NCBI GenBank assembly: GCA_963809895.1
Contig: CAWELD010000003.1
Location: 3,168,001-3,232,000 of the forward strand
Length of the DNA stretch: 64,000 nucleotides
Reading direction: 5' to 3'
From: an uncultured Gemmatimonadales bacterium
Lineage (GTDB): Bacteria; Gemmatimonadota; Gemmatimonadetes; Longimicrobiales; Gaopeijiaceae
Below, piece after piece: positions 16,972-58,232 of this stretch. The notes under the pieces are model-generated. The model was given only the letters and a program-made list of their open reading frames with translations, had not been told where the DNA came from and searched no databases. The translations under genes were made by a program, and so were the position numbers. Positions within the stretch are counted from its first letter, which is position 1, and every line of letters begins with the position of its first letter.

Positions 16972-19900
16972 TCAATGCTCGGCCGACGCCACTTCGTGGA
17001 AGGTCACCTTCTTCAGGTAGCTCACCGCGGGCTGGGTGTTGATCATCTCGTCCAGCACGCGGTAGGTCCTCTCGTTCTGCACCTTCTGCGCGACCCGTGA
17101 CTCCGGGTCGCGGATGTTGCCGAAGACGATGGCCTCGGCGGGACAGCTCTGCTGACACGCCGGTACCACGTCGCCGTCGCGCACGCCGCGATCCTCCAGC
17201 ACGGCCCGGTTCTGGGCCTCGCGGATGCGCTGCACGCAGAACGTGCACTTTTCCATCACCCCGTTCTCGCGAACCGTGACGTCGGGGTTGAACTGCCAGT
17301 TCATGGGCTCCGGCACGTCGGTGTACGTGTACCAGTTGAACACGCGCACCTTGTAGGGGCAGTTGTTCGCGCAGTAGCGCGTGCCCACGCAGCGGTTGTA
17401 GACCTGGCCGTTGAGTCCGTCGGGCGTGTGGTACGCCGCGAACACCGGGCACACCGGCTCGCAGGGAGCGTTGCCGCAGTGCTGGCAGAGCATGGGCAGG
17501 TGGCGCACGTCCACCGGGCCCGCCTCGGCGGCGTTGACGTCCTCGTAGTACCGCTCGATGCGGATCCAGGCGAGGTCGCGGCCCATGCGCACCTGGTCCT
17601 CGCCCACCCACGGCACGTTGTTCTCGGACTGGCAGGCCACCACGCACGCGGAGCAGCCGGTGCACTTGTCCAGATCGATGGCCATGGCCCAGCGCGGGGT
17701 GTTGGCCGGATCGGCGTAGCCACCGTACTCGGCCCCGGGTAGCGGGTAGTCCTGCGGCCGGCCCTCGGTCTCGACGGGAACGAACCCGCCCACGGCCTGG
17801 AGCTCGTGGCGCAGCTCGCCCTCGCCCTCACCCGCTTCGCCTTCTTCGGCGGCCATGGGCTCGTGGCCCAGATCCGCCAACGCCACCGCCGGGGCGACGT
17901 TGCGATCGTGCTGGGTCTCGGCCCCTGCGATGGTGGCCAGGCGCATGTGGTCGCCGGTGGGCTCCACCGATACGCGGGTGGCCAGATGCACCAGGCCTCC
18001 CGAGGGCTGCTCGGCCACCGCCGGCAACAGCACCATGGGATTCACACCGAAGCCGGCGGCCCAGCGTCCGGTGCTGCGGCCGCTGCCCATGGCGATGGCC
18101 ACCGTGTCGGCCCGGATGCCCGGATAGACCCACACCGGCACGTTCAGATCGCCGTGGGGCGAGGTGACGTGCACGATGTCGCCGTTGGCGACGCCCAGGC
18201 GCTCGGCGGCATCGGGATGGACCTCCACCCAGGAGTGCCAGGCCAGCTTGGACACCGGGTCCGGAAGCTCGCGCATCCAGGGCCGGTTGGCCTGGCGCCC
18301 GTCGCCGAAGCGCGACGAGGGATAGACGATGAGGGCGAACTCCCCGTCGCCGTCCAGCCCCGGCCGCTCGAAGGTGAGCGCCGCATCGGCCGAGCGCAGC
18401 GCGGTGCCCTCGTCGGTGCCGGCGCCCTCCACCGTCACCACGCCGTGCTTGAGCGCCCACTTCCACCAGGTCTCGAAGTCCTGCCCGCCGCCGGCCATGC
18501 CGTGGATCTGCTGCCAGCGGGTGCGCAGGTGGTCGTAGAAGGTGTCGGCGCCCAACGGATTGCCGGTGCGGTTCGCCACCGACAGGAACACGTCGCCCAC
18601 CTGCTTGGTGTCGAAGTGCGGCACCGGTCGCATGACCGGCTGGCGCACGGCGAACACCCCGGGCCGCGGACGCGAGTCGCCCCACGCCTCCAGGAAGTGG
18701 CGGTCCGGCAGAATCAGGTCCGCCATCTCGGCCGTCTCGTCGGGCTCGTGGGCGAAGGCCACCTTGAAGGCCACCCCGCCGAAGGCGTCGCTGAAGCCCG
18801 ACGCCGGTGGCAGCGAGTGCACCGGATTGGCGCCGTGCACCATGACCACGCCGACGTTGCCGCCGGCCATGGACCGGATCGCCGACTCCATGTCGCCGTA
18901 GGGAGCGGACGCGGCCGAGGCCGTGGTGGTGGCGAGTTGGACCGTGCGGCCCACGTTGCCGGCCACGGCGTTCAGAATCAGCACCGCCAGGTTCGAGGCC
19001 GTGGCGTTGCGGTGCTGTCCGGCCACGCCCGGGCCCAGCGCCACGCTGGGACCGTTGGCGGTGAAGCGCGAGGCCAGATCGCGGAGCGTCTCCACCGAGA
19101 TGCCGGCGTCGCGGGCCGCGGTCTCGGGATCGTAGGCGGCGAGCACCGAGGCGTAGGGGCCGGCGTCGGCGCCGTTCGCGGCCAGGATCGAGGCCATGCC
19201 CAGGGCCACGGCGGCTTCGGCACCGGGGGCCACGGGGATCCACTCGTCGGCGTTCTGACCGGTGAGCGAGAGACGGGGGCCCACGTAGACGAAGGGGGCC
19301 TTGTCACCTTCCTCGCTCACGCCCGACGCCTGGGCGAACTGCCGGCCGTACTCCACCGGCGACAACCAGGTCTCCAGGAAGTCGGCGCCGAAGGACAGCA
19401 CGAAGTTGGCGCCCTCGAGATCGTAGTGCGGCACCACGTCGCGGCCGAAGGCGATGCGCGTGGCCTCACGGAGCGGCGCCTCGGACAGGCCCTCGTACTC
19501 CACCCGCGTGCCGCCCACGGCGCTGAGGAAGCGGTCGGCCAGATCCGTCATCGAGGGCCCCATGGTCCCCGAGATCAGCAGCACGTTGCCCGCGGCCCCA
19601 CGAATGCGATCGGCCAGCAGGGCTTCCGCCTCTTCCCAGGTGGCGGAGCGGAGCTGGCCGTTCTCGCGGATCATCGGTCCCGTGTAGCGGTCCGCGCTGT
19701 AGAGGCCCTGCAGCGAGGAGTGCCCCCGAGCGCACAGGGCGCCCTGCGACACCGGGTGACGGGGGTTGCCCTCCACCTTGACCACCCGACCCTCGCGGGT
19801 CTTGACCCACATGCCGCACTCGGCGGGGCATTCCTGGCAGACCGTGGTGTACCAGGTCGCCACGCCCGGCGTGATGTCCTCCGGGGGGACCACGTAGGGG

Positions 19901-43290: not shown

Positions 43291-44394
43291 ATGGACACCT
43301 CACAGAAGCGCGCCCCGCCCCGTCGTCCATGCCTGGTCCGCGTGGCCGACCGCGGCGACGTGCTGGAGATCGCGTTCGGCCGGGGATTCACCGAGTCCGA
43401 TGTCGCCACCGTGAAGGCGCTCCCCCAGCGCCGCTGGGACGCCGAGCGGAGCGTCTGGATCGTGCCCAAGGCCGAGGGCGTCGACGAGGCGCTCGAGCGA
43501 AGCTTCGGCGCCCGCATCCGACGCACCCGGGCCGAGCCGCCCGCGAACCCCGAGGGTCCCGAGACCCTCCTGGACCGCACCCGCACCGAGCTCGTCATCC
43601 GGGGCTACGCGAGGCGCACACAGAAGATCTACCTCGGCCACCTGCGCCGCTTCCTGGAGTGGTGCGACCACGACCTCGGCTCCGATCCTCCTCGCCGCAT
43701 GCGTGCCTACCTGCTCCACCTGGTGGAGGACCGGGGCGCCTCGCGGAGCTATCACAACCAGGCCGTCAGCGCCCTGAAGCTCCTGTGCGAAGCGGTGCTC
43801 GGCGAGCCCCGCCTGGCCGAGCGGGTCCCCCGCCCCAAGCCCGAGAAGCGCCTGCCACAGGTCTTGAGCCGCGCCCAGGTGCGTCGCCTCGTGAACCAGA
43901 TCCGCCATCCCAAGCACCGCGCCATCGTTCTCCTGCTCTATTCCGCGGGACTCCGGGTCGGCGAGGTCGTCCGGCTCAAGAAGGAGGACCTGGACACCGA
44001 CCGCGGCCTCCTGCGCGTGCGCCAGGGCAAGGGCAGCAAGGACCGCTACACCCTGCTCTCCACCCGTGCCCTCGAAGCCGTCCGCATCTATCAAGCCGCG
44101 TATCCTTCAGAGGAGCGCTGGCTCTTTCCCGGCGAGCGCAGGGGGCGCCACTACGGCAGCCGCTCCGTGCAGAGGATCGTCCGCGAGGCCGCCCGCAAAG
44201 CCGGCCTCGGCGAGCACGTCACGCCCCACGTGCTCCGTCACTCCTTCGCCACCCACCTACTCGAGGCCGGCACCGACCTCCGCTACATCCAGGAGCTCCT
44301 CGGCCACAAGAGCAGCCGCACCACCGAGATCTACACCCACGTCAGCTCCACCCGCCTGGCGGCCATCCGGAGTCCGCTGGACGAGGAGGGGTGA
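43291..44394 (+). CDS. Tyrosine recombinase, integron-integrase-like but without the I2 insertion; N-terminal HARP-like domain
   Basis: GLRVGE, QGKGSKDR, HVLRHSFATH, LLGH, IYTHV intact; IntI-like N-terminal SAM region (RGYARRTQKIY, SYHNQAVSALK). Confidence 0.92.
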   Translation: MDTSQKRAPPRRPCLVRVADRGDVLEIAFGRGFTESDVATVKALPQRRWDAERSVWIVPKAEGVDEALERSFGARIRRTRAEPPANPEGPETLLDRTRTELVIRGYARRTQKIYLGHLRRFLEWCDHDLGSDPPRRMRAYLLHLVEDRGASRSYHNQAVSALKLLCEAVLGEPRLAERVPRPKPEKRLPQVLSRAQVRRLVNQIRHPKHRAIVLLLYSAGLRVGEVVRLKKEDLDTDRGLLRVRQGKGSKDRYTLLSTRALEAVRIYQAAYPSEERWLFPGERRGRHYGSRSVQRIVREAARKAGLGEHVTPHVLRHSFATHLLEAGTDLRYIQELLGHKSSRTTEIYTHVSSTRLAAIRSPLDEEG

Positions 44395-44484
44395 GCGAAG
44401 GACTCACGGAGTGGCCGCGACCAGCGCATCTCACCCACGCCCGGGTTAGATTGCCACTGATCGCGCACTCGACGGAGGGGCGCC

Positions 44485-44691
44485 ATGGCGGAAGTGACAG
44501 TGTCGACCAGGTACCGGATCGTAATCCCCAAAGCGGTACGGGAGACGCTCGGGGTCGAGATCGGCCAGAAGCTCCAGGCCTTCGCGGGCCCACGTCAGAT
44601 CATCCTCGTCCCCGTGGAGCCCCTACCCGTCATGAGGGGATTCCTGAGCAGGCTCGAGAACGACTTCGACCGCGCACTCGATGAAGGGTGA
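44485..44691 (+). CDS. AbrB/MazE-type antitoxin-like protein (no adjacent toxin)
   Basis: VSTRYRIVIPKAVRETLG; SD GGAGG. Confidence 0.75.
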   Translation: MAEVTVSTRYRIVIPKAVRETLGVEIGQKLQAFAGPRQIILVPVEPLPVMRGFLSRLENDFDRALDEG

Positions 44692-44959
44692 CGGCAGCGC
44701 GGGCCCGCCCCTCAGACGGTGGCAAGTGGCCTGCGTCATCGAGGGCGTAGCACTGATGATCGGGCTCGTGATGCCCGTCACGCCCAGTAAGACCGGATCC
44801 GATTGGAGCATGGCGCAGCTTGTCTTCCCGGAGCCCTCGTACCTCCAGGAGGTGCTCGTCTACTTCGTGCTGACGAACCTTCTGATCGTCGCGTTCGTCG
44901 GAACCCTGTGGCTGTTCGTCCGGCTCGAGCAGCGGCGCCCGAAGGCCTCGGGGGATTAG
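44681..44959 (+). CDS. Small two-TM membrane protein
   Basis: Two hydrophobic segments. Confidence 0.55.
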   Translation: MKGDGSAGPPLRRWQVACVIEGVALMIGLVMPVTPSKTGSDWSMAQLVFPEPSYLQEVLVYFVLTNLLIVAFVGTLWLFVRLEQRRPKASGD

Positions 44960-45137
44960 GGGCCGATCCTCGCCGCCCAACCCACCGAGGCCCAAGCATT
45001 GCGGCTAGGGTGTGCCCGGTGCAATATGAAGTCGGGGGATTCACGAGGCGCAGAGGCCAGGGCCCGAAGAGGACCTAAGGCCCGACCACACCTTCGGAAA
45101 TCTCCGGGCGATGGGCGAACTCGTGCCAGACACACCC

Positions 45138-45163
45138 AACGCCCATAAGGAGTTATGCAAAAT
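45138..45163 (+). other. attI-like primary recombination site
   Basis: CCCATAAGGAG|TTATGC: first GTTA of the array with no upstream attC hairpin; pairs with cassette-1 inverse core GCATAAC. Confidence 0.65.
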
Positions 45164-45465
45164 GCGGTGGTGCGGCCTGGGTCGCTGGCGCCGGACGAAG
45201 CCTTCGGAAAAGGGCGAGCGATCGGGTCGAGTGACCGCCTCCCCAGCCCCTCTTCATGGGTTGGCACCCTTCCCTTTCCCGACCCATTCTAAGCCGGCCA
45301 TGGCTTCGATCCCCGAGCTCCGGCAGGGGCTGGGTTCGGCTACCATCGTCGCCCCGGGGTCCAACTCAGCCTTCGAGAGGCAACGGCTTCCTCCGGCCTA
45401 CGGCTCCTCGCCGGGCTGCGGTACGTGGGCCATCGGTGATCACTCCGCAGCACCTCACGCACTCT
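45153..45465. repeat. ORF-less structured cassette body, copy 1
   Basis: Homologous to 45627-45934 and 50253-50559; nested inverted repeats. Confidence 0.85.
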
Positions 45466-45632
45466 GCATAACAACAAGGCTTCCGGCTCCGCGCCCGCCG
45501 TGCACGGCGCGGCCTCCGCGCAACCGGCCCACGACCAAGTGGAAGACCCTGGCGAAGCCGGCAGCAACTCAGCGTAACCTGCGAGTCGAACGATTGGACG
45601 GGGGCCGGTTCGGAAGCCCCGTCACGTTATGC
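45466..45632 (+). repeat. attC-like site 1 (family A)
   Basis: GCATAAC-aacaa-GGCTTCCG...CGGAAGCC-ccgtcac-GTTATGC. Confidence 0.88.
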
Positions 45633-45934
45633 AAAATGCGTGGTGCGGCCTGGGTCGCTGGCGCCGGACGAAGCCTTCGGAAAAGGGCGAGCAATCGGGT
45701 CAGATGACCGCCTCCCCAGCCCCTCTTCATGGGTGGATGCCCTTCCCTTTCCCGGCCCATTCTAAGCCGGCCATGGCTTCGATTCCCGAGCTCCGGCAAG
45801 GGGCTGAGATCGGCTACCGTCGTCGCCCTGGGGTCCAACTCAGCCCTCGGCGGCCCGGCTTCCTCCGGCCTACACTCCTCGCCAGGCTGCGGTACATGGG
45901 CCATCGATGTCACTCCGCAGCACCCACGCACTCT
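45627..45934. repeat. ORF-less structured cassette body, copy 2
   Basis: Tandem, diverged copy of cassette 1. Confidence 0.85.
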
Positions 45935-46100
45935 GCATAACAACAACGCTTCCGGCTCCGCGCCACGCCTGAACGGCGCGGCCTCCGCGCAACCGGCCCA
46001 CGAGCAGGTGGAAGACCCTGGCGGAGCCGGCAGCAATCAGCGTAACCTGCGAGTCGAACGATTGGACGGGGGCCGGTTCGGAAGCCCCGACACGTTATCG
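45935..46100 (+). repeat. attC-like site 2 (family A)
   Basis: GCATAAC...GCTTCCG...CGGAAGC...GTTATCG. Confidence 0.88.
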
Positions 46101-46173
46101 GGCAGCGCGGAATCGGCGTGTCTGGAAGTACGGTTGTACGATGCTCGGCAACTGAGACGTGCGTGGTGTTCTC

Positions 46174-46380
46174 ATGGCAAACAGCGCGAAATCCCTTCAG
46201 AGAGTCCTGGCGGCCTTGGTGGGGTTGGGCCTTGGTGGTGTGGGGTCTGGCGTGTTGGTCATGCTGTGGGGCATCGCAGGTTGGCCCCTCTTGATTCCAA
46301 TGCTCGTGGGCCTCGCAGCGGGCGCGATGTTCGGGGATTGAGGAATCGGCCTCTTGGCCCGTGCCCTCGCTGGGCTGTAG
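46174..46380 (+). pseudogene. Cassette small membrane protein with internal TGA at 46339
   Basis: Hydrophobic ORF continues in frame after TGA (GIGLLARALAGL*). Confidence 0.5.
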
Positions 46381-46423
46381 TCGACCGGAGTCGGTGGATT
46401 GGGGAATGGTGGGCGGCGCCGCC

Positions 46424-46513
46424 CGATAACAATGCGGGTGGCGCCTGCGCTCGCTACGCTCGCTCCGGGGAACACGGCACGCGATGCGCGCCGCGCCGGA
46501 CCCTTGGAACGTT
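46424..46513 (+). repeat. attC-like site 3 (family C-like), R' split by IS insertion
   Basis: CGATAAC...ggaacGTT| then IS; continues ATGTGC at 48019. Confidence 0.8.
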
Positions 46514-46526
46514 GATATGGAAGGGC

Positions 46527-46756
46527 CTGTCAAGGTATGTAGCGCGAAGTGTGGGGAGCCCGGGGCGGCTTCGACGATGAATCCTGCTGATATTCGATGG
46601 TTGAGCCCGTCAGGGCCCAGAGCATCAGGAGACGGATTCGTCGGGAGCTGGCTGGAGTCTATTCGCGGGGATTGGGCGCTGGGCCGTACCCCGTAACGTT
46701 TTCGGGCGTTCTCCTATCGTGCCCCGAGACTCCCCAATGTTCGCTCGCTGGTTGAA
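46527..46756 (-). ncRNA. Putative bridge/seek RNA-encoding non-coding end of the IS
   Basis: Non-coding region 3' of transposase; contains AACGTTA (target match) and ATATCAG (circle-junction match). Confidence 0.6.
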
Positions 46757-47906
46757 TCAGGCGGCGCGGCTCACCTCCTGAAGCTGAGAGACATCCACGT
46801 CGCGGAGGACGGCCCAGAGGAAGCCGACCATCTCGCGGGCGACGGCCGTGGCGGCCACCGGCCTGGGCTTCTTGGCGGCGAGTCGATGGAAGAGAGTGTA
46901 GAGGCGATGCTGACACTTCCAGGCGTGCTGAATGACGGCGGGATCCTGGCCGCGTTGACGGCGGCGGAGGGACGCGCCGACGGCCGGGCGCTTCCGATAG
47001 TGCCATGCAGCCTGGATCAGGATATGGCGGCACACGTGTGTTGCCGGCCTTGGTGATGGCGCCCAGGCGTCGCCGCTCTCCCGAGGAGTGCTCGCTGGGG
47101 ATGAGGCCGACGTAGGCCATGAGCTGGCGCGGACTCTCGAAGCGGCGAACGTCGCCGAGCTCGGTAGCGAGGACCATGGCGGCCTGGGTCTTGAAGCCGC
47201 GGAAGCAGCGGAGGCGGTCGACCAGGGGCTTGTAGCGCGGCGTGAGGGCGAGGTCCTCGATGCGACGGTCCAGCTCGTCGCGTCGCTGGAGCTTGTACTC
47301 GAGCAGCGCGAGGTACTCCGAGAGCACGATCTGGTCTTCGTCGGCGAAGGTGCCGGGGTCGAGCATGTGGCGGATCCAGTCGAGGTGGCGCACGGTCCAG
47401 TGGGTGCCCTCGCGATAGATGAAGCCTCGGCGGCGCATGAACTTGAGGATATAGTGGCGCGATTTGACGATCTCGCGCTGGAAGGTCTCGCGGCAGCGGA
47501 CCAAGTCGCGCACCCGCTCGTCGGCCTCGGTGGGCACGTGAATGAGGACGAGGCGGTCGTCACGGAAGTCACGAGCGATCTTGATGGCGTCGCGGCGGTC
47601 GGACTTGCGGTGCTCGCCCGGCCGCGCGCGGGATCAGCGAGGGCGCGGCCAGATCGCAGGGCGACGCCCCAGTCGACGAGGGAGCGCTGGAGCACGTAAC
47701 CCGCACCCGAGGCCTCGTAGCAGGCGCGCACGGACGCCCTCGGCTTGGAGCCGCTGGAAGTAGCGGCGGACTTTGCGGAGATCGTAGGGGAGGCGGTCGA
47801 CGCGCATGGGCTCCGGATCACGGTCCCGGAACACGGCCGCAGTGACGGAATCCTTGTGGACGTCGAGGCCGACCCAGAAGATTGGGGCACGATGGGATGA
47901 TGACAT
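46757..47906 (-). pseudogene. IS110 family transposase with several frameshifts
   Basis: VGLDVHKD, CYEASG, RFESPRQLMAYVGLIPSEHSSG, ITKAGN, AVARE spread over three frames. Confidence 0.88.
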
Positions 47907-48071
47907 GGGGCTGGTCTCCTGTCGGTTGCGGCTCGACCGCCGCATGTGGCGCTGGCGTTGCCTCTCACGCGACGCTAATCCACGACATCCGCGGGAGGCC
48001 AGCCCTTCCATCGTGTCTATGTGCAATCGCGGGGACGAGAGGTCGCGCGAAGCGGAGCGTTCGACCTGGCG

Positions 48072-48569
48072 ATGATGACAGGAGATGCCTGGGTGGTCGA
48101 GTTTGACCGTAGGAAGCCGTTCGGAATCACGGTGGCCATGGTGTTCCTCGGCCTCCTTGCCAGTCTCGGGTCGGTTGCCGGCCTCGCCAATCTCCTCACG
48201 TCACTCTTCGGCGAAGGGCCGTTCCTAATGAACGGCGTCATCGTGCCAAGGCACGAGTTTCTCCGTTTCGCTCTTCCATTCATTCTATTCTACCTCAGTC
48301 TGTGCACTCTGGCTGGGGCCGCCGCGTGGTCCATCCATGTTGAGCATCCACGTTCCAGGCCCTTGTTGTTGATCTATGCGGCTTCTCTCGTCTTCACGAG
48401 CCCGTGGTCCCTTGCCCTTGGAGTGCCAGCCGCGGACGTGGCCTCATCAACGCTGTCCGCAGCCTTGGTCACAGGATTGGTCTGGTTCTACTTGTATCGA
48501 AAGAAGGCGGTGGTTCAGTACTACGACGCGATCAGGATCGCCCAGATGGCGCGCCCGGAACGACACTAG
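48072..48569 (+). CDS. Cassette membrane protein, unknown function
   Basis: Four hydrophobic helices; fills cassette 4. Confidence 0.7.
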   Translation: MMTGDAWVVEFDRRKPFGITVAMVFLGLLASLGSVAGLANLLTSLFGEGPFLMNGVIVPRHEFLRFALPFILFYLSLCTLAGAAAWSIHVEHPRSRPLLLIYAASLVFTSPWSLALGVPAADVASSTLSAALVTGLVWFYLYRKKAVVQYYDAIRIAQMARPERH

Positions 48570-48601
48570 CGGTGGCGCCTCAACGCAATTGTGGCGACCG
48601 C

Positions 48602-48761
48602 ACATAACAACAGGGCGTTCCGGCTCCGGCCGCAGGTGCGGCCTCCGCTGCAACCGGCCCACGAACATGAGGAAGACCCTGGCGCAGCCGGCAGCAATCA
48701 GCGTAACCTGCGAGTCGAACGGTTGGAGCGGGGCCGGTTCGGAAGCCCCTTCACGTTAAGC
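48602..48761 (+). repeat. attC-like site 4 (family A)
   Basis: ACATAAC...CGGAAGCC-ccttcac-GTTAAGC. Confidence 0.87.
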
Positions 48762-48777
48762 GAAGTCGCGACAATCC

Positions 48778-50001
48778 CTGGTTGGCGCGCATGTTCACCG
48801 TGAGTGGAGGTATGCTATCCGGACTTGGCGATTCCTGGCCGTAGCGACCGCCTGGGTCACTCCCGCCCTTGGCGCTTGCACGGCCGACGAGGAACCGACC
48901 GAAGACACGGCTCCTGCGGCGCGTCTTGAGGAGACGCTGCGTGTCGGATCGGTAGAGGGAGATCTGTCCTTCGGTACGATCCTGAACGTTGCCCGGGGAC
49001 CGGGAGGCCGGACGTATGTGGTCGAGCCGGTCGGGTCTCGAGTCTCGATCCTAGATTCGGACGGGACACGGGTCGGAACGGTCGGTGGCGCCGGCATGGG
49101 CCCAGGGGAGTTTGCTCGTCCAGGTCGGATGGGATGGGTCGGGGACACTCTCTGGATCTTGGACGGGGCGAACTACCGGTTCTCGCTCTTCTCCCAGGCC
49201 GGCGAGTTCATCGGCGAGGTCAATCCGCAGATCGCCGAGCGGCAAGACCCTTCCGACATACCTCCTCGACCCGTGGGTCTCTTGCCGGGCGGCGTCCTCT
49301 TCGCGAGGACTTCGGTGCCCTCCCATCTGGTGGCGCAGGGTGTCATCGACAGCCTCACGTACTACTCGCTCGATCGGGACGGCGCCATTCTCCGAGAGCT
49401 GCATCGCACGCGGGCTACGCCGCCGCTATGGATTCACAACCCGGACTCGCGGAATCCGATCTCGGGCCGCTTCAAGGCACAGCCTTTCGTCACAGGGGAA
49501 CTTGTCGTGCCCAGCCCCGATGGCGCGTTCGTGACCGCCACGGCGAGTGAGGGTCGGACGGTCGTGACGAAGATCAGCCTCGACCTCGATACGATGTGGA
49601 GTCGCACTCTTCCTGTGAGTCCACCCCCACTCTCGGAAGCCACGATCGACAGTCTCATTGAAGCCGAGTCTGAGAGCTTCGCGCGGTCTCCGGCGGCTGA
49701 GGGCGCCACAGCAGCTCGTATCGCGACGTGGGTACGAGATGCTCTGGTGACTCCGGAGGTCAGGCCCGGATTGGAGGAGATGGTCGTCGGTCACGACGCC
49801 AGCATCTGGATCGCTCATCCGGACACTGCCGGAGCTCGGCAGTGGGTGGTTCTCTCGAGCGACGGGAGGGTCCAAGCGAGAGCAGCCCTGTCGCGAGAGG
49901 TGACGGTCTTCGATGGGTGGGAGAACGGACTGATCGGCGTAGTCCACGACGCTCTCGATGTCCCTCGGATCGTGAGGTACGAGCTACGAGGCGGAGGCTA
50001 G
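48778..50001 (+). CDS. Cassette 6-bladed beta-propeller lipoprotein (start uncertain)
   Basis: Frame open upstream of 49018 with lipobox LGAC; GMGPGEF motif; no canonical in-frame start before the lipobox. Confidence 0.7.
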   Translation: MVGAHVHREWRYAIRTWRFLAVATAWVTPALGACTADEEPTEDTAPAARLEETLRVGSVEGDLSFGTILNVARGPGGRTYVVEPVGSRVSILDSDGTRVGTVGGAGMGPGEFARPGRMGWVGDTLWILDGANYRFSLFSQAGEFIGEVNPQIAERQDPSDIPPRPVGLLPGGVLFARTSVPSHLVAQGVIDSLTYYSLDRDGAILRELHRTRATPPLWIHNPDSRNPISGRFKAQPFVTGELVVPSPDGAFVTATASEGRTVVTKISLDLDTMWSRTLPVSPPPLSEATIDSLIEAESESFARSPAAEGATAARIATWVRDALVTPEVRPGLEEMVVGHDASIWIAHPDTAGARQWVVLSSDGRVQARAALSREVTVFDGWENGLIGVVHDALDVPRIVRYELRGGG

Positions 50002-50094
50002 CGGGGTTCGACGGACCGACCGCTGCTTCCTCCTCCAGAGGTCGGGCGCGTTGGCGCCGAAGGCCGGCGCGATGTGCGTCTCGATTGCGACCTC

Positions 50095-50258
50095 GCTTAA
50101 CTGCGGGCTTCCGGCTCCGCGCCGCTGAACGCGGCGCTCCGTCCCAACTGGCCGCGGCCGTCAGCGGAAGGGTCTGGCGGTCAGGCTGCGGGCGAACGTA
50201 CTCTGGCCACCTGAAGCACTGCTGACGGGGCCAGTTCGGAAGCCCTGACACGTTATGC
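50095..50258 (+). repeat. attC-like site 5 (family A)
   Basis: GCTTAAC...GGCTTCCG...CGGAAGCC...GTTATGC. Confidence 0.87.
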
Positions 50259-50559
50259 CCAATGTGGAGGCGCGTCGTGATCGCGGGCACCGGAGGAAGC
50301 CTTCGATAGGTCGCGAGCGAGAAGGTCAGTTGACCGCCTCCCCAGCCCCTCTTCAGGGGTTGGCACCCTTCCCTTTCCCGACCCCTTGAGCCAGCCATGG
50401 CTTCGATCCTCGAGCTCCGGCTTGGGGCTGGGTTCGGCTACCATCGTCGCCCCGGCGCGCAACCCAGCCTTCGAGAAGCAAGGGCTTCCTCCGGTTTCGG
50501 CTCGTCGCCGGGCTGCGGTACGCGGGCGATCCCGACCACTTCCCAGCGCCTCCCCACAG
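50253..50559. repeat. ORF-less structured cassette body, copy 3
   Basis: More diverged homolog with compensatory substitutions. Confidence 0.85.
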
Positions 50560-50729
50560 GCATAACAACAAGGCTTCCGGCTCCGCGCCACGCCGTTGAA
50601 CGGCGCGGCGCTCCGTCCCAACCGTCCCACGACCAAGCGGAGGACCCTGGCGGAACCGGCTGCTCTCAGCGTACCCTGCGAGTCGAACGGTTGGACGGGG
50701 GCCGGTTCGGAAGCCCCTTCACGTTAGGC
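50560..50729 (+). repeat. attC-like site 6 (family A)
   Basis: GCATAAC-aacaa-GGCTTCCG...CGGAAGCC-ccttcac-GTTAGGC. Confidence 0.88.
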
Positions 50730-50772: not shown

Positions 50773-52338
50773 GTGGTGCTTGAGCCCTTGCTAATTCCAA
50801 ACGTATCTTTGGAACCCCTTCGCGTTCTGTCAACATACGAGGGGGGCTTTGGTCGGGTTTACATCGTGGAGGCAAGCGACGGAGAGCGTTATGCCCTCAA
50901 GACACTGAAATGGGAGCTTGGCCAAGACCGTGCCACCCTACGCGACGAAGCAAGCAAGCTCGCCGACGTCACGAATCATGCAAATGTCGTCGAGATCATT
51001 GGTGTCTTCTGGCATCGAGACGATCCCTTCATCGGTATGCCATACTATCCCGCGACACTTCGCACCTACTTCTCCCAAGCCCACCTCTCCCTCGACCGCC
51101 TGACTAGTGCCATTGCCGATGTTGCCCGAGGTCTCGCTCATCTCCATGACCTTGGCGTGCTACACTTGGATCTCAAACCTGAGAACGTTCTTGCGTCTGC
51201 AGACGGCCACTTGGCCATTTCGGACTTCGGCTTATCTGCCGCCCTACCGCCGGTTACAGCCTCCAGCAAACATCGGCAGCTCTTCATGTCTGGTGTCACT
51301 GGCACCTTGGCGTATATGAGTCCCGAACACTTCGTCACGAGGCGTCTTAGCGCGAAGTCCGACGTCTTCGCACTTGGCACCATGATGTTTGAGGGGCTGA
51401 CGGGTCGTCATCCATTCCTTGCCGGATCACCAGAGGAAACGGTGCAGCATATCCTTCTGGTGAACCCGGCCTTTCAGCTTGCCGAGCGGCTTCGGCTGCC
51501 TGGGGTCTTGCGGGAACTTTGCCTGGCCTGCCTATCTAAGGCTCCGGAGCAGCGTCCGACCGCTCGCGAGGTGGCAACCTGTCTCCAAGGAAGGACCGGC
51601 CTTCCCACAGGGGCCAAGACACAAGACGTGGACCCATCTCGTCTGGTGAACAAGGCCAGCACGCTTCGCGCTGTGGGCAGGGTGGACGAGGCGCGCCAGA
51701 TACTTGAGGACTGTCTTCGCCACCACCCGTGGTATCTTTCGGCGCTCATCGGCCTTGCTTACACCCACTGGGACCAACACAACATACCGGAGGCGGCAGC
51801 AGTACTTGAGACTGCCCTTGAAGCCGAGGAGTGGATTGGGACCCCCGAGGAGATGGGAAACCTGCTCACCAATCTATCGTTCTACTATCTCAGTAGTGAT
51901 CCGGAGAGCAGCATACGTTTTGCCCGGCATGCCGCGGCCATCAATGAGAATGATTGGCAGGCGCTCGGCAATCTAGCCGAGGCATGCCGCCTCCTTGGCT
52001 CCCGTCGTCAGGGTTTGTTGGAGGAGGGACTGGATGTCTGTCGTCGCGCGATGAAGATCAACCCTGATGACTTGAAGCTGAAGGTGACTTACGGAGGTCT
52101 GCTGCTGGAGGCCAGTAATGCTGTCGAACTGTGGCCATTTGTTACGTCTCTGATCAACACTCATGGTGCTGATGACGTGCCGCTCCGCTTCTTGCTAATC
52201 GCTACCTTGGCATTCTACCGCAAGTTCGAAGACGCCGAACGGTGGCTGGCGCCTATGCGTCAGTACTCCAACCTACAACCGGTAGTGCAGGCAGCAGAGG
52301 AGGAGATCGCTCGGCGAAAGGGGGATGGACGCGTGTGA
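50773..52338 (+). CDS. Cassette Ser/Thr protein kinase with C-terminal TPRs
   Basis: GGFGRVY, ALK, HLDLKPEN, DFG, YMSPE, SDVFALG; helical repeats. Confidence 0.9.
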   Translation: MVLEPLLIPNVSLEPLRVLSTYEGGFGRVYIVEASDGERYALKTLKWELGQDRATLRDEASKLADVTNHANVVEIIGVFWHRDDPFIGMPYYPATLRTYFSQAHLSLDRLTSAIADVARGLAHLHDLGVLHLDLKPENVLASADGHLAISDFGLSAALPPVTASSKHRQLFMSGVTGTLAYMSPEHFVTRRLSAKSDVFALGTMMFEGLTGRHPFLAGSPEETVQHILLVNPAFQLAERLRLPGVLRELCLACLSKAPEQRPTAREVATCLQGRTGLPTGAKTQDVDPSRLVNKASTLRAVGRVDEARQILEDCLRHHPWYLSALIGLAYTHWDQHNIPEAAAVLETALEAEEWIGTPEEMGNLLTNLSFYYLSSDPESSIRFARHAAAINENDWQALGNLAEACRLLGSRRQGLLEEGLDVCRRAMKINPDDLKLKVTYGGLLLEASNAVELWPFVTSLINTHGADDVPLRFLLIATLAFYRKFEDAERWLAPMRQYSNLQPVVQAAEEEIARRKGDGRV

Positions 52339-52409
52339 TGTCGATATCATCCGAGCGCAAGGCGGTGTCGCGATCATCATGCTAACGCCGACCAGGCACT
52401 GAACACTAC

Positions 52410-52567
52410 GCCTAACAAATGCGTTGCGCCTACGCCGCGCAAGCGCGGCTCCGGAGAACACCGGCGCAGCGGGGCTGGTGGCCCGCAGGAAGCGGACGGA
52501 GTGATCGCCTGGAGCGCACCGTTCGCAGGTTGTGATGCGCCGACGTCGCAACTCTTGAACGTTAAGT
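52410..52567 (+). repeat. attC-like site 7 (family B variant)
   Basis: GCCTAAC...GTTGCG...CGCAAC-tcttgaac-GTTAAGT. Confidence 0.85.
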
Positions 52568-52655
52568 GTCATGCCGCGGCTGGCCGAACAAACGCCGAAA
52601 GGCTATCTTTCCCAAACAGAACGTAACCGTCCCCACTTCCGTCGAGAGGATCGAA

Positions 52656-53447
52656 TTGGCTGATCGGAGCGACATCGAGTGGACCGACGCTACGTGGAAC
52701 CCTACGACGGGTTGCACAAAGGTCTCACGCGGGTGTGACAACTGCTACGCCGAGGCCTTGGCACATCGCCTTCTTTCTGACACCTATCGTCGTCGACTCC
52801 CGGTAGTCCAGTCCCCTGAGAATCTGGCTGATCCGTTTGCAGTTCGGGTCTGGCCAGACCGTCTAGGAATTCCCCGGTCGTGGAAGGCGCCGCGGCGGGT
52901 GTTCGTGAATTCCATGTCAGATCTGTTCCACGCAGACGTGCCGGAACTCTTCGTTAGGCGGTGCTTCGAGGCGATGCTCGAAGCGGACTGGCATGAGTAC
53001 CAGATCCTGACAAAGAGGCCGTCGCGGGCTGCCAGATTCGTCGCTCGCAACTCTGATCTCTTCGAGCAGAACGGACTTCCAGCCCATATCTGGATCGGAA
53101 CGTCGGTGGAGGATCAGGCCGTTTCCCATCGCATCCGACACCTCCTCGCGGTGCCGGCAGCCGTACGATTCCTCAGTTGTGAGCCGCTTATCGGGGCTCT
53201 GTCCATTGCTGGCGATCTGGAGGAGCCGGACCCTGGAGTCCACTGGGTTATCGCGGGTGGCGAGAGCGGTGTCGGGGCGCGTCCAATGGAGCTGAGTTGG
53301 GCCCGCCGCCTCCGAGATGAGTGTGACGCGCTAGGGATCCCGTTTTTCTTCAAGCAGTGGGGAGGTAGGACCCCCAAGGCCGGAGGACGGGAACTCGATG
53401 GACGAACGTGGGACGAGTATCCCGAGAGTCGGCTTGCGTCGAAGTAG
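52656..53447 (+). CDS. Phage Gp37/Gp68 (DUF5131) radical-SAM-like protein
   Basis: IEWTDATWNPTTGCTKVSRGCDNCYAE, FVNSMSDLFH, GGESG, FFKQWGG. Confidence 0.92.
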   Translation: MADRSDIEWTDATWNPTTGCTKVSRGCDNCYAEALAHRLLSDTYRRRLPVVQSPENLADPFAVRVWPDRLGIPRSWKAPRRVFVNSMSDLFHADVPELFVRRCFEAMLEADWHEYQILTKRPSRAARFVARNSDLFEQNGLPAHIWIGTSVEDQAVSHRIRHLLAVPAAVRFLSCEPLIGALSIAGDLEEPDPGVHWVIAGGESGVGARPMELSWARRLRDECDALGIPFFFKQWGGRTPKAGGRELDGRTWDEYPESRLASK

Positions 53448-53454
53448 ATCAATC

Positions 53455-54548
53455 ATGGCGCAAGACGATGGAACGCTCTGGCCGCGGGGACCTCACACGG
53501 AGGGGAAGCACCTGGTCCTGAAGAACTACCTCGACGCATGGCTGCCAATCCTCGGTAGTTGGAACGGCCGCATCCTCTTCGTCGACGGGTTCGCGGGACC
53601 GGGCGAATACGAAGACGGAGAGGACGGATCTCCGATAATCGCTCTAAAGGCCTTCATCGACCATGCGCACAAGAGGGTCATTCGCGGCGAAGTGGCGTTC
53701 TTCTTTGTCGAGGAGGATGAGGCGCGTGCCACTCATCTCCGTGGGCGTGTGGAAGCGCTCAAGCCCGACCTGCCAGAAAACGCCAGGATTGAGATCCGCA
53801 CGGATCGATTCGAAGAGTCGATGAACGCGGTGCTGGACGAGATCGAAGATCGGGGTAAGAGACTCGCCCCATCGTTGGTGATGGCCGATCCTTTCGGTGT
53901 GTCGGGCACGCCGATGAGCGTGATGGAGCGCATTCTCGGGTATCCGACCTGCGAGCTTTACATCTCGTTCATGTACGAGAGCATCAATCGCTTCCTTGGC
54001 ACCGAGGAATTTGCTCCCCACCTCGATGGTCTCTTCGGCACAGATGAGTGGAGAGCCGGACTCGATTTGGCTGGTGAGGAAAGAAAACGGCTCCTGTACG
54101 CGCTTTACGCGCGCCGCCTTAAGGACATCGGAGCCGAGCATGTGGTGCACTTCGACTTGTATGAGGGCAATCGGCTGGTGTATGCCATCTTCTTCGCGAC
54201 GCGGCACTTGAAGGGGTGCGACCTGATGAAGAAGGCGATCTGGAAGGTCGCACCGTCTGGGGACTTCGCGTTTCGCGGTGCCAGGAATGATCAGCTGGTG
54301 CTTGGAGTCGACAACCCGGATTTTTCCCGCTGAGGGCGCTACTCGCGGAGCGGTTCCGCGGGCAGGAATGGGTGGAGATCGACGACGTCCTCGAGTTCAT
54401 GGCGTCTGACGAGGTGGAGTATCACACGGGCCACCTGAAGAAGCAGGTTCTGAAGCCAATGGAGATCGAAGGTCAGATCGAAGTGGACGAGTCGAGTCGT
54501 AATCGCAAGAAGACCTACCCGAGCGGAAGCCGGATCCGCTTCATTTAG
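53455..54548 (+). CDS. Three-Cys-motif partner protein (TcmP-like), frameshift near 54325
   Basis: HTEGKH, DGFAGPG, DPFG, MKKAIWK; C-terminus continues in another frame after GATTTTTCCC. Confidence 0.8.
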
Positions 54549-54586
54549 GCATTGAGTCAGGCCACCGTGCGGAACGAAGGCACGAC

Positions 54587-54682
54587 ACTTAACTCAAGGT
54601 TGCCGCCTCCGTTCGCCTTCGCTCACTTCGGTGAATCACGGCGCCTCCTGGGCGCCGCGCCGGCAACCCCGACACGTTAACC
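54587..54682 (+). repeat. attC-like site 8 (family B)
   Basis: ACTTAAC-tcaag-GTTGCCG...CGGCAAC-cccgacac-GTTAACC. Confidence 0.88.
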
Positions 54683-54745
54683 GACATGGCTCAAGGCCTG
54701 CAACCTGAAAGGAGGCAGTGGCATGCGACACGCAAAGGCCTTCCG

Positions 54746-55765
54746 ATGACCGCGAAATCTAAGGGGCTGGATGAGAGTGGCTTCCAGAACTTGGGGATCA
54801 TCTACTCGTTATTGTTTTTTCTCTTGGGGATCGCCCTCCTCGTGGGAAGCACGTATGTGACACATGAGCTCGTGTCGCATCTGTTGAGGGATATGGGGCT
54901 CGCGGCGTTAGTCGGCCTCTATCTCATGTGGACACTCGAGAGACTGAACAAACGCCGAGTACAGGCCGAGGTGCAGGAGTATATCGAAAGCGTCGGGGAA
55001 AACTTTATAAGTACCGTCTATGGGCGCTTCCTGCCGCCCGCTCTGTTCGACGTGATCCGCCGTTCCCTGTTCGACCAGAGCTTCTTAAGGACGGTATATA
55101 GCATTGACCTCTCTCTACAGAACCTCACATCAGCCGCGATCGATTCTGCGTCAGGCCCGGTGCGAGACATGCTAAGCGCATTCGTCGCGAGAGCTGACGC
55201 TGAAAGCTTGGATCGCCAGGACCTCATAGTCTTGCAGATGACCCTGTATTACGAGGTCCGGAACGTCGCCGCGGCAGCAGATGACTACGCTGTACGGTTG
55301 GAGATTCCGAAACCCTTCGGCAGAGAATACGAGGGTCTGGCCGGCATAACATCGGTGAGTATAGACGGACGGGAGATGATCAGTGAAGCGCCGTACTGGG
55401 GTGAGGAGTCCGAAGGACGCAACCCGAATATGGTCTTTTTCTCGGAGGGCGTGAGAATGAAGCCCGATCAGACGATCCGGGTGACACTTGAAGCATACTC
55501 TGTCCGGCGAATGGATGACTGGGAGCCGTGGCAGACCATGGTCCCTTCGCACGGCATGACGGTGAGAGCAAGGGATCTCGATGGTGACAAGGACATCACG
55601 TTAAGCTTGGACGCGCCCCTGTTGGAAGGAGAGGCGACATACGCGGACAAGGACCAACGGACCAACCGGGCAGTGTTGATGGTTTCCCAGTACTTGCTAC
55701 CGTTTCAGGGGGTGACGATTAGTTGGAGGAGACGGCGGGACGCGAAGGAGGATGGGGTGGAGTAG
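54746..55765 (+). CDS. Cassette protein with two N-terminal TM helices and a beta-rich soluble domain
   Basis: Long ORF filling cassette 9. Confidence 0.75.
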   Translation: MTAKSKGLDESGFQNLGIIYSLLFFLLGIALLVGSTYVTHELVSHLLRDMGLAALVGLYLMWTLERLNKRRVQAEVQEYIESVGENFISTVYGRFLPPALFDVIRRSLFDQSFLRTVYSIDLSLQNLTSAAIDSASGPVRDMLSAFVARADAESLDRQDLIVLQMTLYYEVRNVAAAADDYAVRLEIPKPFGREYEGLAGITSVSIDGREMISEAPYWGEESEGRNPNMVFFSEGVRMKPDQTIRVTLEAYSVRRMDDWEPWQTMVPSHGMTVRARDLDGDKDITLSLDAPLLEGEATYADKDQRTNRAVLMVSQYLLPFQGVTISWRRRRDAKEDGVE

Positions 55766-55824
55766 TAGTGGGGGGACCTTGGGCGGGGGTGTGAGAGCGT
55801 GGAAGTGGTGAGCTGCGCCACGTC

Positions 55825-55842
55825 GGTTAAAAGGAGTTAAGT
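55825..55842 (+). other. Minimal attI-like cassette junction
   Basis: GGTTAA-AAGGAG-TTAAGT with no hairpin. Confidence 0.75.
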
Positions 55843-55910
55843 GCCACTGCCATTGGAACGGTCTCCGTACGGGGCTCACTGGAAACCTAGAGCTGGAAGA
55901 GGGTGCGGCG

Positions 55911-57653
55911 ATGCGAATCGAGAGCGTTGAGATCGAGGGATTTAGGTCGTTCGGGCTCGACCCTGTCTTGATCCGCTTCCCGGAGATTGACGTGCCGATA
56001 TCAGTCATCGGGCACAACAACTCGGGGAAGAGCAACTTCCTCGCCGCGCTGCTGCACGGCACCGCCACGCGGCCGTCCTACCCGAACAACTTCAGTCTGG
56101 ATGACCTTTTTGGACGGGATGAAGGGACGATCTGCAACATCGACGTGCGGATCTCGCCACCCCTACTGAGTGCGAATGCCTTCAACAACGTGACCGAGAT
56201 GCCTTCGCTTCGGCTTCGGATACAATGCGAGGCGGGCGTGATCGAAACGTCCCATTACTGCTTCGATCCTGACGGGAAGCAGGTCTACAACGTTCGGTCG
56301 GTCAAGCGAAGTAAGAGCAAGGTCTATTCGGAGGACGAAAAGGAGACGCTGACGACGTACGCGCGCACCGGCGCGGAGCAGGTGCACAAATGGCGCTCCA
56401 AGATCCCCATCTACTACATCGGTCCGGAGACGCTGTATAAGGAGCTGACTCCGTCCCGGTTCAGTCTGCTGGGGAAGGTGATCGACTCGTTCCGGGCCGA
56501 GTTTGAGGACCCGGAGAGCACGATGGAGGCGGCGGACGGCGTGGTGGACTCCCACATCGGGCGACCGCGTGCCGAGATCTACGAACAGGCGATGCGATAC
56601 ATCGAGGAGCACGTTCTCCCGGCATCTGGCTTTCGGGCTTTCGTAGATGAAGTTGAGGCGATCGTCCGGGAGCAACTCGCCGTAGACGAGGAGTCGTTCG
56701 GGGTTCGATTCAGACCACCAGTTGCGGACGCGTTCTTCAAGAACCTTCGGTTTCACATCAGGGAGAATGAGCATCGACCGTTGCTCCCGATCGACCGGAT
56801 GGGGTCCGGCTTCGTCTCTCTGTTTGTGGTGGCCCTACTGCGAGCCCTCGTCGACACCGACGAGGGTGGAAAGATCTTCTTGCTCGAAGAGCCCGAGACC
56901 TATCTCCACGAGCACTACCAGGACTACTTCTACGAAGTGCTGTGCGAGCTCGCTGAGTCAAACCAGGTGGTCTACACGACTCACTCGAAGAAATTCGTGA
57001 ACGTCTTCCGGCCGGAGTCCATCATTCGACTTAGCGCGACTCCCGACGGGACTGTCCCCGTGACGGCGGGGGGCGGGGCCGTAGACTTCCCGGACGGCGT
57101 TGACGGCTACGAGCTGAAGAGCCCCGAGGACTTCCCGAAGTTTCTTTGTACCCTGGAGCCGAATCTCGGGAACACAGTGTTCGCTTCACGCGTCGTTGTG
57201 GTAGAGGGCCCGCACGACCTCTTGGCCTACCGAACCGCCCTCGACGGATCCGTCGAATGGGGACTTCGGAACACCGCGGTGGTCAGTGCGTGGGGTAAGG
57301 ACACCGTCGCGGCGCTAGTTGAACTCTGCCACGCCTTCGAAGTACCTGTCTTCGCGATCCACGACCGAGATCTTCCGCAAGAGATCAGTGACGACGATCC
57401 GGTTGATTCCCTGACTCCCGGTCAGAAAGCCCAGCGGACCAAGAATGCACGGATCGCGGGCTTGTCGGGACCCAATCACGTCCACCAGAATCGACCGAAT
57501 CTCGAGGGCGTCCTGGGGATCCCACCGGAGGAGAAGTCCGCCGAAGCCGTCTTCGGCGCGTTAGCTGGGAAGGATCTCCACGAGGTTCGGACCGAGTTCC
57601 CTGGGCTGATTCCCGACGCTCTCCTCGAGTTTCTTCAAGTACCGACCGATTAG
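55911..57653 (+). CDS. OLD family ATP-dependent endonuclease (ABC ATPase + TOPRIM)
   Basis: GHNNSGKS, MGSG, LLEEPE, TTHS, VEGPHD, HDRD. Confidence 0.9.
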   Translation: MRIESVEIEGFRSFGLDPVLIRFPEIDVPISVIGHNNSGKSNFLAALLHGTATRPSYPNNFSLDDLFGRDEGTICNIDVRISPPLLSANAFNNVTEMPSLRLRIQCEAGVIETSHYCFDPDGKQVYNVRSVKRSKSKVYSEDEKETLTTYARTGAEQVHKWRSKIPIYYIGPETLYKELTPSRFSLLGKVIDSFRAEFEDPESTMEAADGVVDSHIGRPRAEIYEQAMRYIEEHVLPASGFRAFVDEVEAIVREQLAVDEESFGVRFRPPVADAFFKNLRFHIRENEHRPLLPIDRMGSGFVSLFVVALLRALVDTDEGGKIFLLEEPETYLHEHYQDYFYEVLCELAESNQVVYTTHSKKFVNVFRPESIIRLSATPDGTVPVTAGGGAVDFPDGVDGYELKSPEDFPKFLCTLEPNLGNTVFASRVVVVEGPHDLLAYRTALDGSVEWGLRNTAVVSAWGKDTVAALVELCHAFEVPVFAIHDRDLPQEISDDDPVDSLTPGQKAQRTKNARIAGLSGPNHVHQNRPNLEGVLGIPPEEKSAEAVFGALAGKDLHEVRTEFPGLIPDALLEFLQVPTD

Positions 57654-57686
57654 GGTGTGCTCGCGTGCGCCCGAGAGGCGATTCAT

Positions 57687-58232
57687 ATGAGGATTAGGTC
57701 CCTCAAAGGCCTTCTCGCGAAGTACGATGCGGCCCCAGGACGGGTGCGTGCCTACTTCCCTCACTTCAAGCAACTCGCTGAAGACTTCCCGTATGACGTA
57801 GTCCTTGCCTACGTGTTTGGTCAGGTCGAGCTAGCGCAGAACATGACGCTGTATTGTGGGATCGTGAAGCTGCATCGCGCCGATGCGAGCTTGGCTCGAA
57901 AGGTGGTCGACTCCCACCACATGACCCGACCGGGGTTCAGGGAGAAGGTCAAGGTGGTTTACGGCACGCCAATCCCCGCCGATATCACCGCGAAACTCGA
58001 CAGGGCCGAGAAGACGCGAGACAAAGTGATGCACGGGAAGGCCTGTACGGACGCTGAGAAGCGGAACGCGTTGGGCTACGTTCTAGAGTATGCCGAGGAC
58101 TTGAATGCCCACCTAGAGGAGTTGGCCGGCATTCAGCCGTTCGGGGACCTTCGTGGCTTCAAGGGACGAGCCAAGAGTCTCGATAAGAAAACGACCAGGT
58201 GGATCCTGAAGGGTATGGGTTTCGGCGCATGA
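57687..58232 (+). CDS. Putative HEPN-like protein
   Basis: All-helical character, RDKVMH (Rx4H) motif. Confidence 0.5.
   Translation: MRIRSLKGLLAKYDAAPGRVRAYFPHFKQLAEDFPYDVVLAYVFGQVELAQNMTLYCGIVKLHRADASLARKVVDSHHMTRPGFREKVKVVYGTPIPADITAKLDRAEKTRDKVMHGKACTDAEKRNALGYVLEYAEDLNAHLEELAGIQPFGDLRGFKGRAKSLDKKTTRWILKGMGFGA

Follow-up and report, generated by a model that had tools for sequence, protein, structure and literature searches.

A divergent family of gene-less cassettes with covarying helices, a candidate structured RNA, in an integron-like array of Gemmatimonadota

Introduction

The role of integron cassettes that carry no gene has been open since at least 2006, when Boucher et al. proposed RNA, promoter or selfish roles for them (PMC1382264); some have proved to be active as promoters, and a single small RNA (sRNA) is on record. 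New insertions are described as entering an array at its first position (PMC6557892), and cassette length as influencing excision only under some conditions (PMC5371416). The attC recombination sites are described as folding from the bottom strand, on which they show purine-rich unpaired bases and G.T pairs (PMC5027507). The integrases, IntIs, are defined by an additional domain described as necessary for integron recombination (PMC9668308). In this study, we analysed a 64,000-nt stretch (the window) of an uncultured Gemmatimonadales bacterium (contig CAWELD010000003.1, positions 3168001-3232000; 5.3-Mb genome, 95% complete, labelled G000), in which a tyrosine recombinase heads an integron-like array. 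Three cassettes of this array belong to a divergent, gene-less family, and we put the probability that their cargo is a structured non-coding RNA (ncRNA) of ~300 nt at about 0.5.

Results

Three gene-less cassettes and their homologues

The array consists of ~18 co-oriented units with attC-like palindromes between them, and the recombinase lies adjacent. Gene-less copies had been placed at 45153-45465, 45627-45934 and 50253-50559 by a first-pass annotation made from the letters of the window; all three were found there as array cassettes 1, 2 and 6 (c1, c2 and c6), and all the stems quoted in that annotation are present at their coordinates. Each copy spans G/TT to the inverse core and is followed by an attC-like site of 166-170 nt, and with these core-site boundaries and an attC of its own each has the build of a gene-less integron cassette. 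Genome-wide, three copies were counted, every one inside the array. Pairwise identity is 90.9% for c1/c2, 83.6% for c1/c6 and 79.2% for c2/c6, and the G+C content of the element is 65-68%.

Homologues were reached by way of the platform, through the attC family, the recombinase, and then profile searches of arrays (~970 kb) and genomes. The resulting count is a floor, with members in at least 9 of 314 genomes of the same bacterial family, this genome included; the eight others are G015, G014, G445, G447, G490, G292, G495 and G509. G015 holds two copies and G292 eight, one of them truncated, and the copy of G509 is cut by a contig end. The members fall into six lineages that are 43-58% identical and 278-321 nt long. 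Furthermore, contigs of three other studies (X1, X2 and X5; four sequencing runs examined) closely match the c2 and c6 types. In these contigs a cassette start comes after a c6-type attC, as expected for tandem copies or circles. Neighbours and positions of the members differ across arrays, which points to a mobile cassette family.

Helices that co-evolve across lineages

The first-pass annotation had proposed a conserved rod with compensatory changes. Three nested helices, P1, P2 and P3 (Table 1), agree with this proposal, whereas a plain rod does not hold, as variable multibranch junctions separate the helices and give a branched backbone. Likewise, covariation is not evident in the three local copies alone, where both partners changed in 6 of 104 consensus pairs and the covariation term, at +4.13, is unfavourable, but it emerged with the distant homologues. 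In a swap test (six lineages, 720 permutations), arms paired best with their own partners in P1 (p=0.0014), P2 (p=0.0028; 0.0014 on the bottom strand) and P3 (p=0.0014), whereas five other region pairings, used as a control, showed no partner specificity (p=0.24-0.96). Of the 31 window pairs listed by an unbiased scan over 80 windows, 22 fall on P1, P2 or P3. For P1 and P2 together, 90% of 229 cells are paired in an alignment made from sequence only, and 14 of the 23 pairs changed on both sides; none of 500 shuffles scored as high, and slid registers left 36-42% paired. Compensatory covariation, as looked for in a structured ncRNA, is thus found across divergent homologues.

Because P1 is partly generic by a control with coding cassettes (see below), P2 and P3 are the family-specific evidence. 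The central position of P2 is mismatched in most lineages. The earlier statement that the structure is under selection can therefore be kept for P2 and P3, which co-evolve across the six lineages, but part of the end pairing cited for it belongs to a common site design. All three copies fold more stably than their shuffles, with z-scores of -3.9 for c1, -2.45 for c2 and -4.55 for c6, and to a lesser degree (-2.5, -1.0 and -3.0, respectively) with the 7-bp core removed. Conserved bases are clustered in P2, in the GGCTAC that follows P3, and in the 3' tail. The sequence of P2 and the GGCTAC are conserved beyond pairing needs, and we infer that this conservation exceeds the demands of compact DNA folding alone.

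The apical loop CCCTTCCCTTTC, which had been presented as conserved, is kept in the three local copies but not in other lineages, where a C-rich tract alone remains, and the stem beneath it is disrupted in c2. Among nine sequences, C makes up 0.50-0.53 of the bases in alignment columns 86-141, a range that takes in the P3 5' arm, versus 0.25-0.34 elsewhere. Pseudoknots or alternative pairings (purine tract with C-rich tract, 5' GGCRCC with 3' tail, and 5' linker with 3' loop) were rejected for lack of partner specificity in the swap test. A bottom-strand G-quadruplex was also rejected, its motif occurring in the three local copies only and in none of seven other sequences. In G292 (locus L126), the C-rich tract of the family copies has a complement in a G-rich stretch that lies ahead of attI, at 50 nt upstream of the first cassette; no such stretch was seen upstream of copy 1 in the window.

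Table 1. Features of the array discussed in the text (window coordinates; helix arms and hairpin are those of copy 1)
Feature	Coordinates	Strand	Remarks
Tyrosine recombinase heading the array	43291..44394	+	PF00589, PF13495; same strand as cassettes
attI-like junction	45140..45154	+	Placed from sequence; probable crossover G/TT at 45152/45153; related integrons have similar junctions ahead of their first cassette
Copy 1 (array position 1), gene-less structured interior	45153..45472	+	Inverse core 45466-45472
Helix P1, 5' arm	45163..45173		Pairs with 45450-45461; 9/11 pairs changed on both sides; core-proximal part generic, distal part longer in this family
Helix P2, 5' arm	45190..45202		Pairs with 3' arm 45385-45397; 5/12 pairs changed on both sides; 91.7% of cells paired
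Helix P3, 5' arm	45237..45251		Pairs with 45325-45340, then conserved GGCTAC
Apical hairpin with C-rich loop	45256..45287		C-richness alone kept across lineages
attC-like site of copy 1	45466..45632	+	167 nt, long class
Copy 2 (array position 2)	45627..45941	+	
attC-like site of copy 2	45935..46100	+	
attC-like site of cassette 5	50095..50258	+	Upstream of array-position-6 copy
Copy 3 (array position 6, c6)	50253..50566	+	
attC-like site of array-position-6 copy	50560..50729	+	

Coding potential

The copies had been called ORF-less. In the strict sense this does not apply to c2, which carries a 103-codon open reading frame (ORF; 45629-45940) that fills its cassette, but the frame is not conserved and has no Pfam match. 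Among 10 sequences no frame is conserved, substitutions are spread evenly over codon positions, indels are of 1-2 nt, and stops occur in every frame; the family thus lacks a conserved ORF or coding pattern, as a gene-less cassette should. A conserved translated peptide, the alternative cause of conservation named in the first-pass annotation, was checked for, and none explains it. We therefore regard it as very unlikely that the cassette once encoded, or cryptically encodes, a small protein, or that it is neutral DNA with stems left from cassette formation. The c2 frame and the indel errors that the assembly appears to hold elsewhere, in frameshifted genes, would fit such an origin. However, several indels of the element recur in short-read contigs of other studies, and neutral decay would not retain P2 and P3 by compensatory change at ~50% identity.

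Recombinase and recombination sites

The recombinase scores 227 bits against NF040815, above the cut-off of 220, and 211 bits against the integron-integrase model TIGR02249, below the cut-off of 265. Its residues 258-272 cover residues 171-224 of IntI4 (2A3V), so that it is ~39 residues shorter and the IntI-specific insertion is absent; a Pfam scan gave no name to its first 100 residues. Judged by its sequences, the platform works like an integron, yet it fails the IntI-domain test for a canonical one. Within the bacterial family, the recombinase is present in 96 of 313 genomes and the attC family of copy 1 in 12 of 250.

An extended terminal inverted repeat is present in nearly all of 119 distinct cassettes from the window and related arrays, with or without a gene; it is composed of the core, three further pairs, a near-fixed A.C opposition at position 11, and 3-8 more pairs. 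This repeat may serve as the site definition for a recombinase without the insertion. Over the first eight positions past the core, 81 coding cassettes gave 487 Watson-Crick, 111 A.C, 3 G.T and 47 other combinations (total 648), and since the extended end pairing is seen in coding cassettes, it is part of the general site design and not family-specific.

Among the family members read, all those with an assembled 3' end are followed by a long attC of 158-170 nt, which also lies behind 63% of coding cassettes. In this long class (157-170 nt; 45466-45632 and 20 related sites) the central domain is near-constant in length and contains conserved CTGGCG and CGTAG motifs able to pair; a pseudoknot is possible in some members, and consensus folding did not resolve the domain. 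Both G015 copies (L079:15540-15841 and 17887-18188) have the core GCT/AGC instead of GTT/AAC, changed at both ends. As this compensated change begins right after G, the crossover can be placed after that G.

Position in arrays

In six of the nine genomes (G000, G014, G015, G292, G445 and G490) the cassette nearest the recombinase is a family member, and in the other three (G447, G495 and G509) the copy found lies behind an attC. As G445 and G490 came to light by way of the recombinase, they are biased toward first place. In three long arrays whose discovery was free of this bias, in which members make up 3 of ~18, 2 of ~11 and 8 of ~41 cassettes, a member is nonetheless first in all, for which a hand calculation gives a chance of ~0.006. 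Among 16 readable first cassettes, six are of this family and several others are apparently gene-less. As new insertions enter at first position (PMC6557892), front placement could mean high mobility, selection for expression, or both.

The element could also be a promoter or other cis-regulatory cassette that drives or insulates expression of downstream cassettes. Most tested gene-less Vibrionaceae cassettes had promoter activity (PMC11014356), an ORF-less, promoter-active cassette takes first position in Treponema integrons with integrase and array on one strand (PMC6557892), and first position is common in the present family. However, a scan confined to sigma-70-like sites and intrinsic terminators found neither (0 of each) on either strand of 44380-46150, the element is rich in G+C, and a promoter does not need long-range co-evolving helices. 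We consider this explanation unlikely.

Other gene-less families occur in related arrays, at L153 (G604), L086 (G482), L159 (G417), L160 (G237), L082/L083 (G292), L091 (G563), L177 (G617) and L154 (G559). These families measure ~165, 236, 254, 262, 267, 415 and 445 nt, and none matched the profile of the family studied here. In G604, seven of the first ~8 cassettes are of the 445-nt type. The second cassette of the G015 array (L079; 376 nt) is apparently gene-less and has two short hairpins, which we take to resemble the T-arms of transfer RNA (tRNA), and ARAGORN found no tRNA in it.

Strand of the folded molecule

The bottom strand is slightly favoured as the folded molecule, judging from the polarity of the non-Watson-Crick pairs. 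In the three helices A.C outnumbers G.T 17 to 3 on the top strand, mostly in the generic part of P1, and in three lineages the consensus energy is better for the bottom strand. A look-up of sequencing runs containing the element listed none made from RNA. A strand difference among gene-less families, once considered as support for RNA in either orientation, was dropped because a column-shuffle control attributed it mostly to base composition.

These and other observations weigh against a structured RNA. Outside the terminal 20 nt, A.C still exceeds G.T on the top strand (12 vs 4) and pyrimidine pairs exceed purine pairs (11 vs 2), again a lean to the bottom strand, and P2 has a bottom-strand G.U in four of four sequences of one lineage. 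The bottom strand is the folding strand of attC and is antisense to the array promoter, so that RNA and single-stranded DNA (ssDNA) are not separable on this ground. Single-sequence z-scores are split, four for the top and five for the bottom strand, and by the column-shuffle control base composition explains most of the alifold strand energy gap, except in the G445 lineage (~1.6 standard deviations). Besides, the end pairing of P1 is partly generic, being present in the 81 coding cassettes; six lineages are few, and related; the G292 lineage has no overall folding signal (z +1.4 and +0.4); and the C-rich tract, whose sequence is not conserved, showed no partner-specific pairing inside the element (swap test, p=0.83-0.96).

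Alternatively, and as the main rival to an RNA, the helices may act as ssDNA. The bottom strand of the excised cassette would zip into a compact dumbbell, with attC on one side and P1-P2-P3 on the other, that is protected and favoured for re-insertion at attI, giving a hypermobile and largely selfish cassette. The wobble polarity leans to the bottom strand, a signature reported for attC sites (PMC5027507), and P1 directly continues the core helix. The first place of a member in all three unbiased long arrays, the tandem or circular junctions in three other studies, and the likewise repeated copies and array-front placement of other gene-less families also agree with it, and ssDNA and RNA motifs are described as hard to tell apart by comparison (Weinberg 2017, PMC5737381). 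On the other hand, compact folding should be possible without conserved bases and a multi-junction architecture fixed over 300 nt. The interior shows no cognate pairing with attC (3 of 3240 tests at p<=0.003, the chance level), P2 does not follow the L-box of the cognate attC from lineage to lineage, and the energy gap between strands is mostly compositional. Moreover, ssDNA chemistry is assumed here for a recombinase that is without the domain described as necessary for integron recombination. Taken together, the ssDNA explanation is possible, with the odds clearly against it.

Distribution and unrelated elements

No member was confirmed in 60 genomes from other families of the order, and BLAST with copy 1 found no homologue in 60 relatives, in 400 genomes of the class (matches of at most 66 nt only) or in plasmids. 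Pattern scans gave chance matches only in genome contigs (9 of 9) and metagenome contigs (8 of 8), blanks that say little on range, as the patterns were built from the three local copies and are unable to match divergent lineages. Scans of viral contigs returned 0, 6, 0 and 3 matches, none of them confirmed. Weak matches to the R1 profile in six genomes (E 1e-3 to 1e-2), and pattern matches in G016, in G337 and in 6 of 12 genomes, were unconfirmed and are excluded from all counts.

No known RNA family was matched in the Rfam search that the first-pass annotation had suggested. Rfam 15 gave no gathering-level match in the window (best E in the region, 1.1) and left the element unmatched in eight homologous or related loci, with no match to an intron model, and ARAGORN predicted no tRNA or transfer-messenger RNA in 10 sources. 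Likenesses to an HDV-like (hepatitis delta virus) ribozyme, signal recognition particle RNA, Y RNA, the feet of repetitive extragenic palindromic (REP) elements and a sigma-54 box were considered as leads and gained no support from Rfam. A REP/REPIN element was rejected, as there are only three copies, all in the array, and no PF01797 (RAYT) protein in the 95% complete genome. A retron or group II intron RNA was rejected as well, the sole RVT_1 match lying 1.3 Mb off in a separate island and no Rfam intron matching.

Neighbouring genes and islands

Named homologues of SelD, which is encoded nearby, come from Gemmatimonadota, the probable phylum of the host. Between the recombinase and attI (44485-44956) lie an AbrB/MazE-type antitoxin-like gene and a small membrane-protein ORF; G292 has an extra small gene there. 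An insertion sequence of the IS110 family (PF02371; 46514-48018), with sub-terminal inverted repeats and a frameshifted transposase, lies in reverse orientation immediately behind the third attC's GTT, and presumably resembles IS1111-attC elements. The downstream cassettes (50773-58232) encode a Ser/Thr kinase with tetratricopeptide repeats, a pair of DUF5131 and three-Cys-motif partner proteins, and an OLD-like ATPase-TOPRIM protein, and several of them look defence-related. Elsewhere in the genome, a defence-like island after pilC (G000:C3:1889900-1896100) combines an apparent restriction-modification pair with a small membrane protein and a reverse transcriptase that is frameshifted. It also includes a single degenerate attC, which is of the copy-1 type.

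Discussion

A mobile ncRNA, a regulatory cassette and a selfish cassette had all been offered for these copies. All three can be retained, with ncRNA favoured. Outside this genome the sequence of the loop is not kept. We rank a structured RNA first because a fixed multi-junction architecture with conserved bases at ~50% identity would exceed what DNA folding or a promoter needs. In the simplest scenario, the interior would be transcribed either from the array promoter when the cassette is first or from the opposite strand. P1 would join both ends into one domain, and P2, P3 and the conserved junction bases would build a scaffold to be recognized by a protein or through tertiary contacts. By excision and re-insertion at attI the RNA would reach the place of best expression and increase in copy number.

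Some regulatory sRNAs have C-rich loops that base-pair with G-rich targets, for example ribosome-binding sites. By analogy, and as our leading if doubtful guess at how the element acts, the C-rich tract above P3 might be kept single-stranded for pairing with G-rich RNA of this kind. On a larger scale, we tentatively speculate that non-canonical integrons keep a library of large structured RNAs, the present family being one of at least seven unrelated gene-less families (165-470 nt). Its functional RNA of ~300 nt could be a regulator, a protein decoy or a catalyst, activated by recombination to the array front or driving its own re-insertion.

The divergent members suffice to define the helices and conserved bases, so that disrupt-and-compensate tests can split an RNA function from DNA-level mobility. 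If the element acts as RNA, large structured RNAs would be shuffled by integrons besides proteins; if it acts as DNA, it would show how a cassette may tune its own mobility. The several further gene-less families in related Gemmatimonadota arrays are a source of candidate RNA motifs.

A literature search that had most subscription papers outside it returned neither a covarying gene-less cassette family nor a study of these Gemmatimonadota arrays. Among described systems, attC sites (PMC5027507) and the DUF1874 motif (PMC5737381) are, like the present element, folded nucleic acids of cassette arrays; unpaired bases rich in purines and G.T pairs are shared features when the bottom strand is read. 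Unlike attC, the element lies between sites, has GTT first and AAC last (the reverse of attC), and is adjacent to an attC of its own. The sRNA-Xcc1 of Xanthomonas integrons is likewise described as an ncRNA on a cassette, opposite in orientation to the array promoter (PMC6557892, PMC12444791), the RNA being a candidate in our case. In contrast to sRNA-Xcc1, which shares its cassette with symE (PMC12444791), the present element fills the whole cassette and matches no Rfam family. The promoter cassettes of Vibrionaceae and Treponema are also ORF-less, and in Treponema, where integrase and array share a strand, one such cassette is in first place (PMC11014356, PMC6557892). Their demonstrated role is promoter activity, and the accessible text of PMC11014356 does not use the term 'secondary structure', whereas the family described here has a conserved long-range structure and no sigma-70-like site. 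In organization, the family is like the paralogous non-coding cassettes of Vibrio superintegrons, which are described as having no ORF, several paralogues per array, full-length conservation and a narrow taxonomic range (PMC1382264). However, homologues of the Vibrio cassettes are >80% identical or absent, with no structure reported in the accessible part of that paper, whereas here homologues of 43-58% identity retain compensatory helices; furthermore, the present family occurs in a different phylum and in a non-canonical integron. In summary, gene-less cassettes are a known class in Vibrio, Treponema and Xanthomonas, and what seems new here is a covarying, divergent family.

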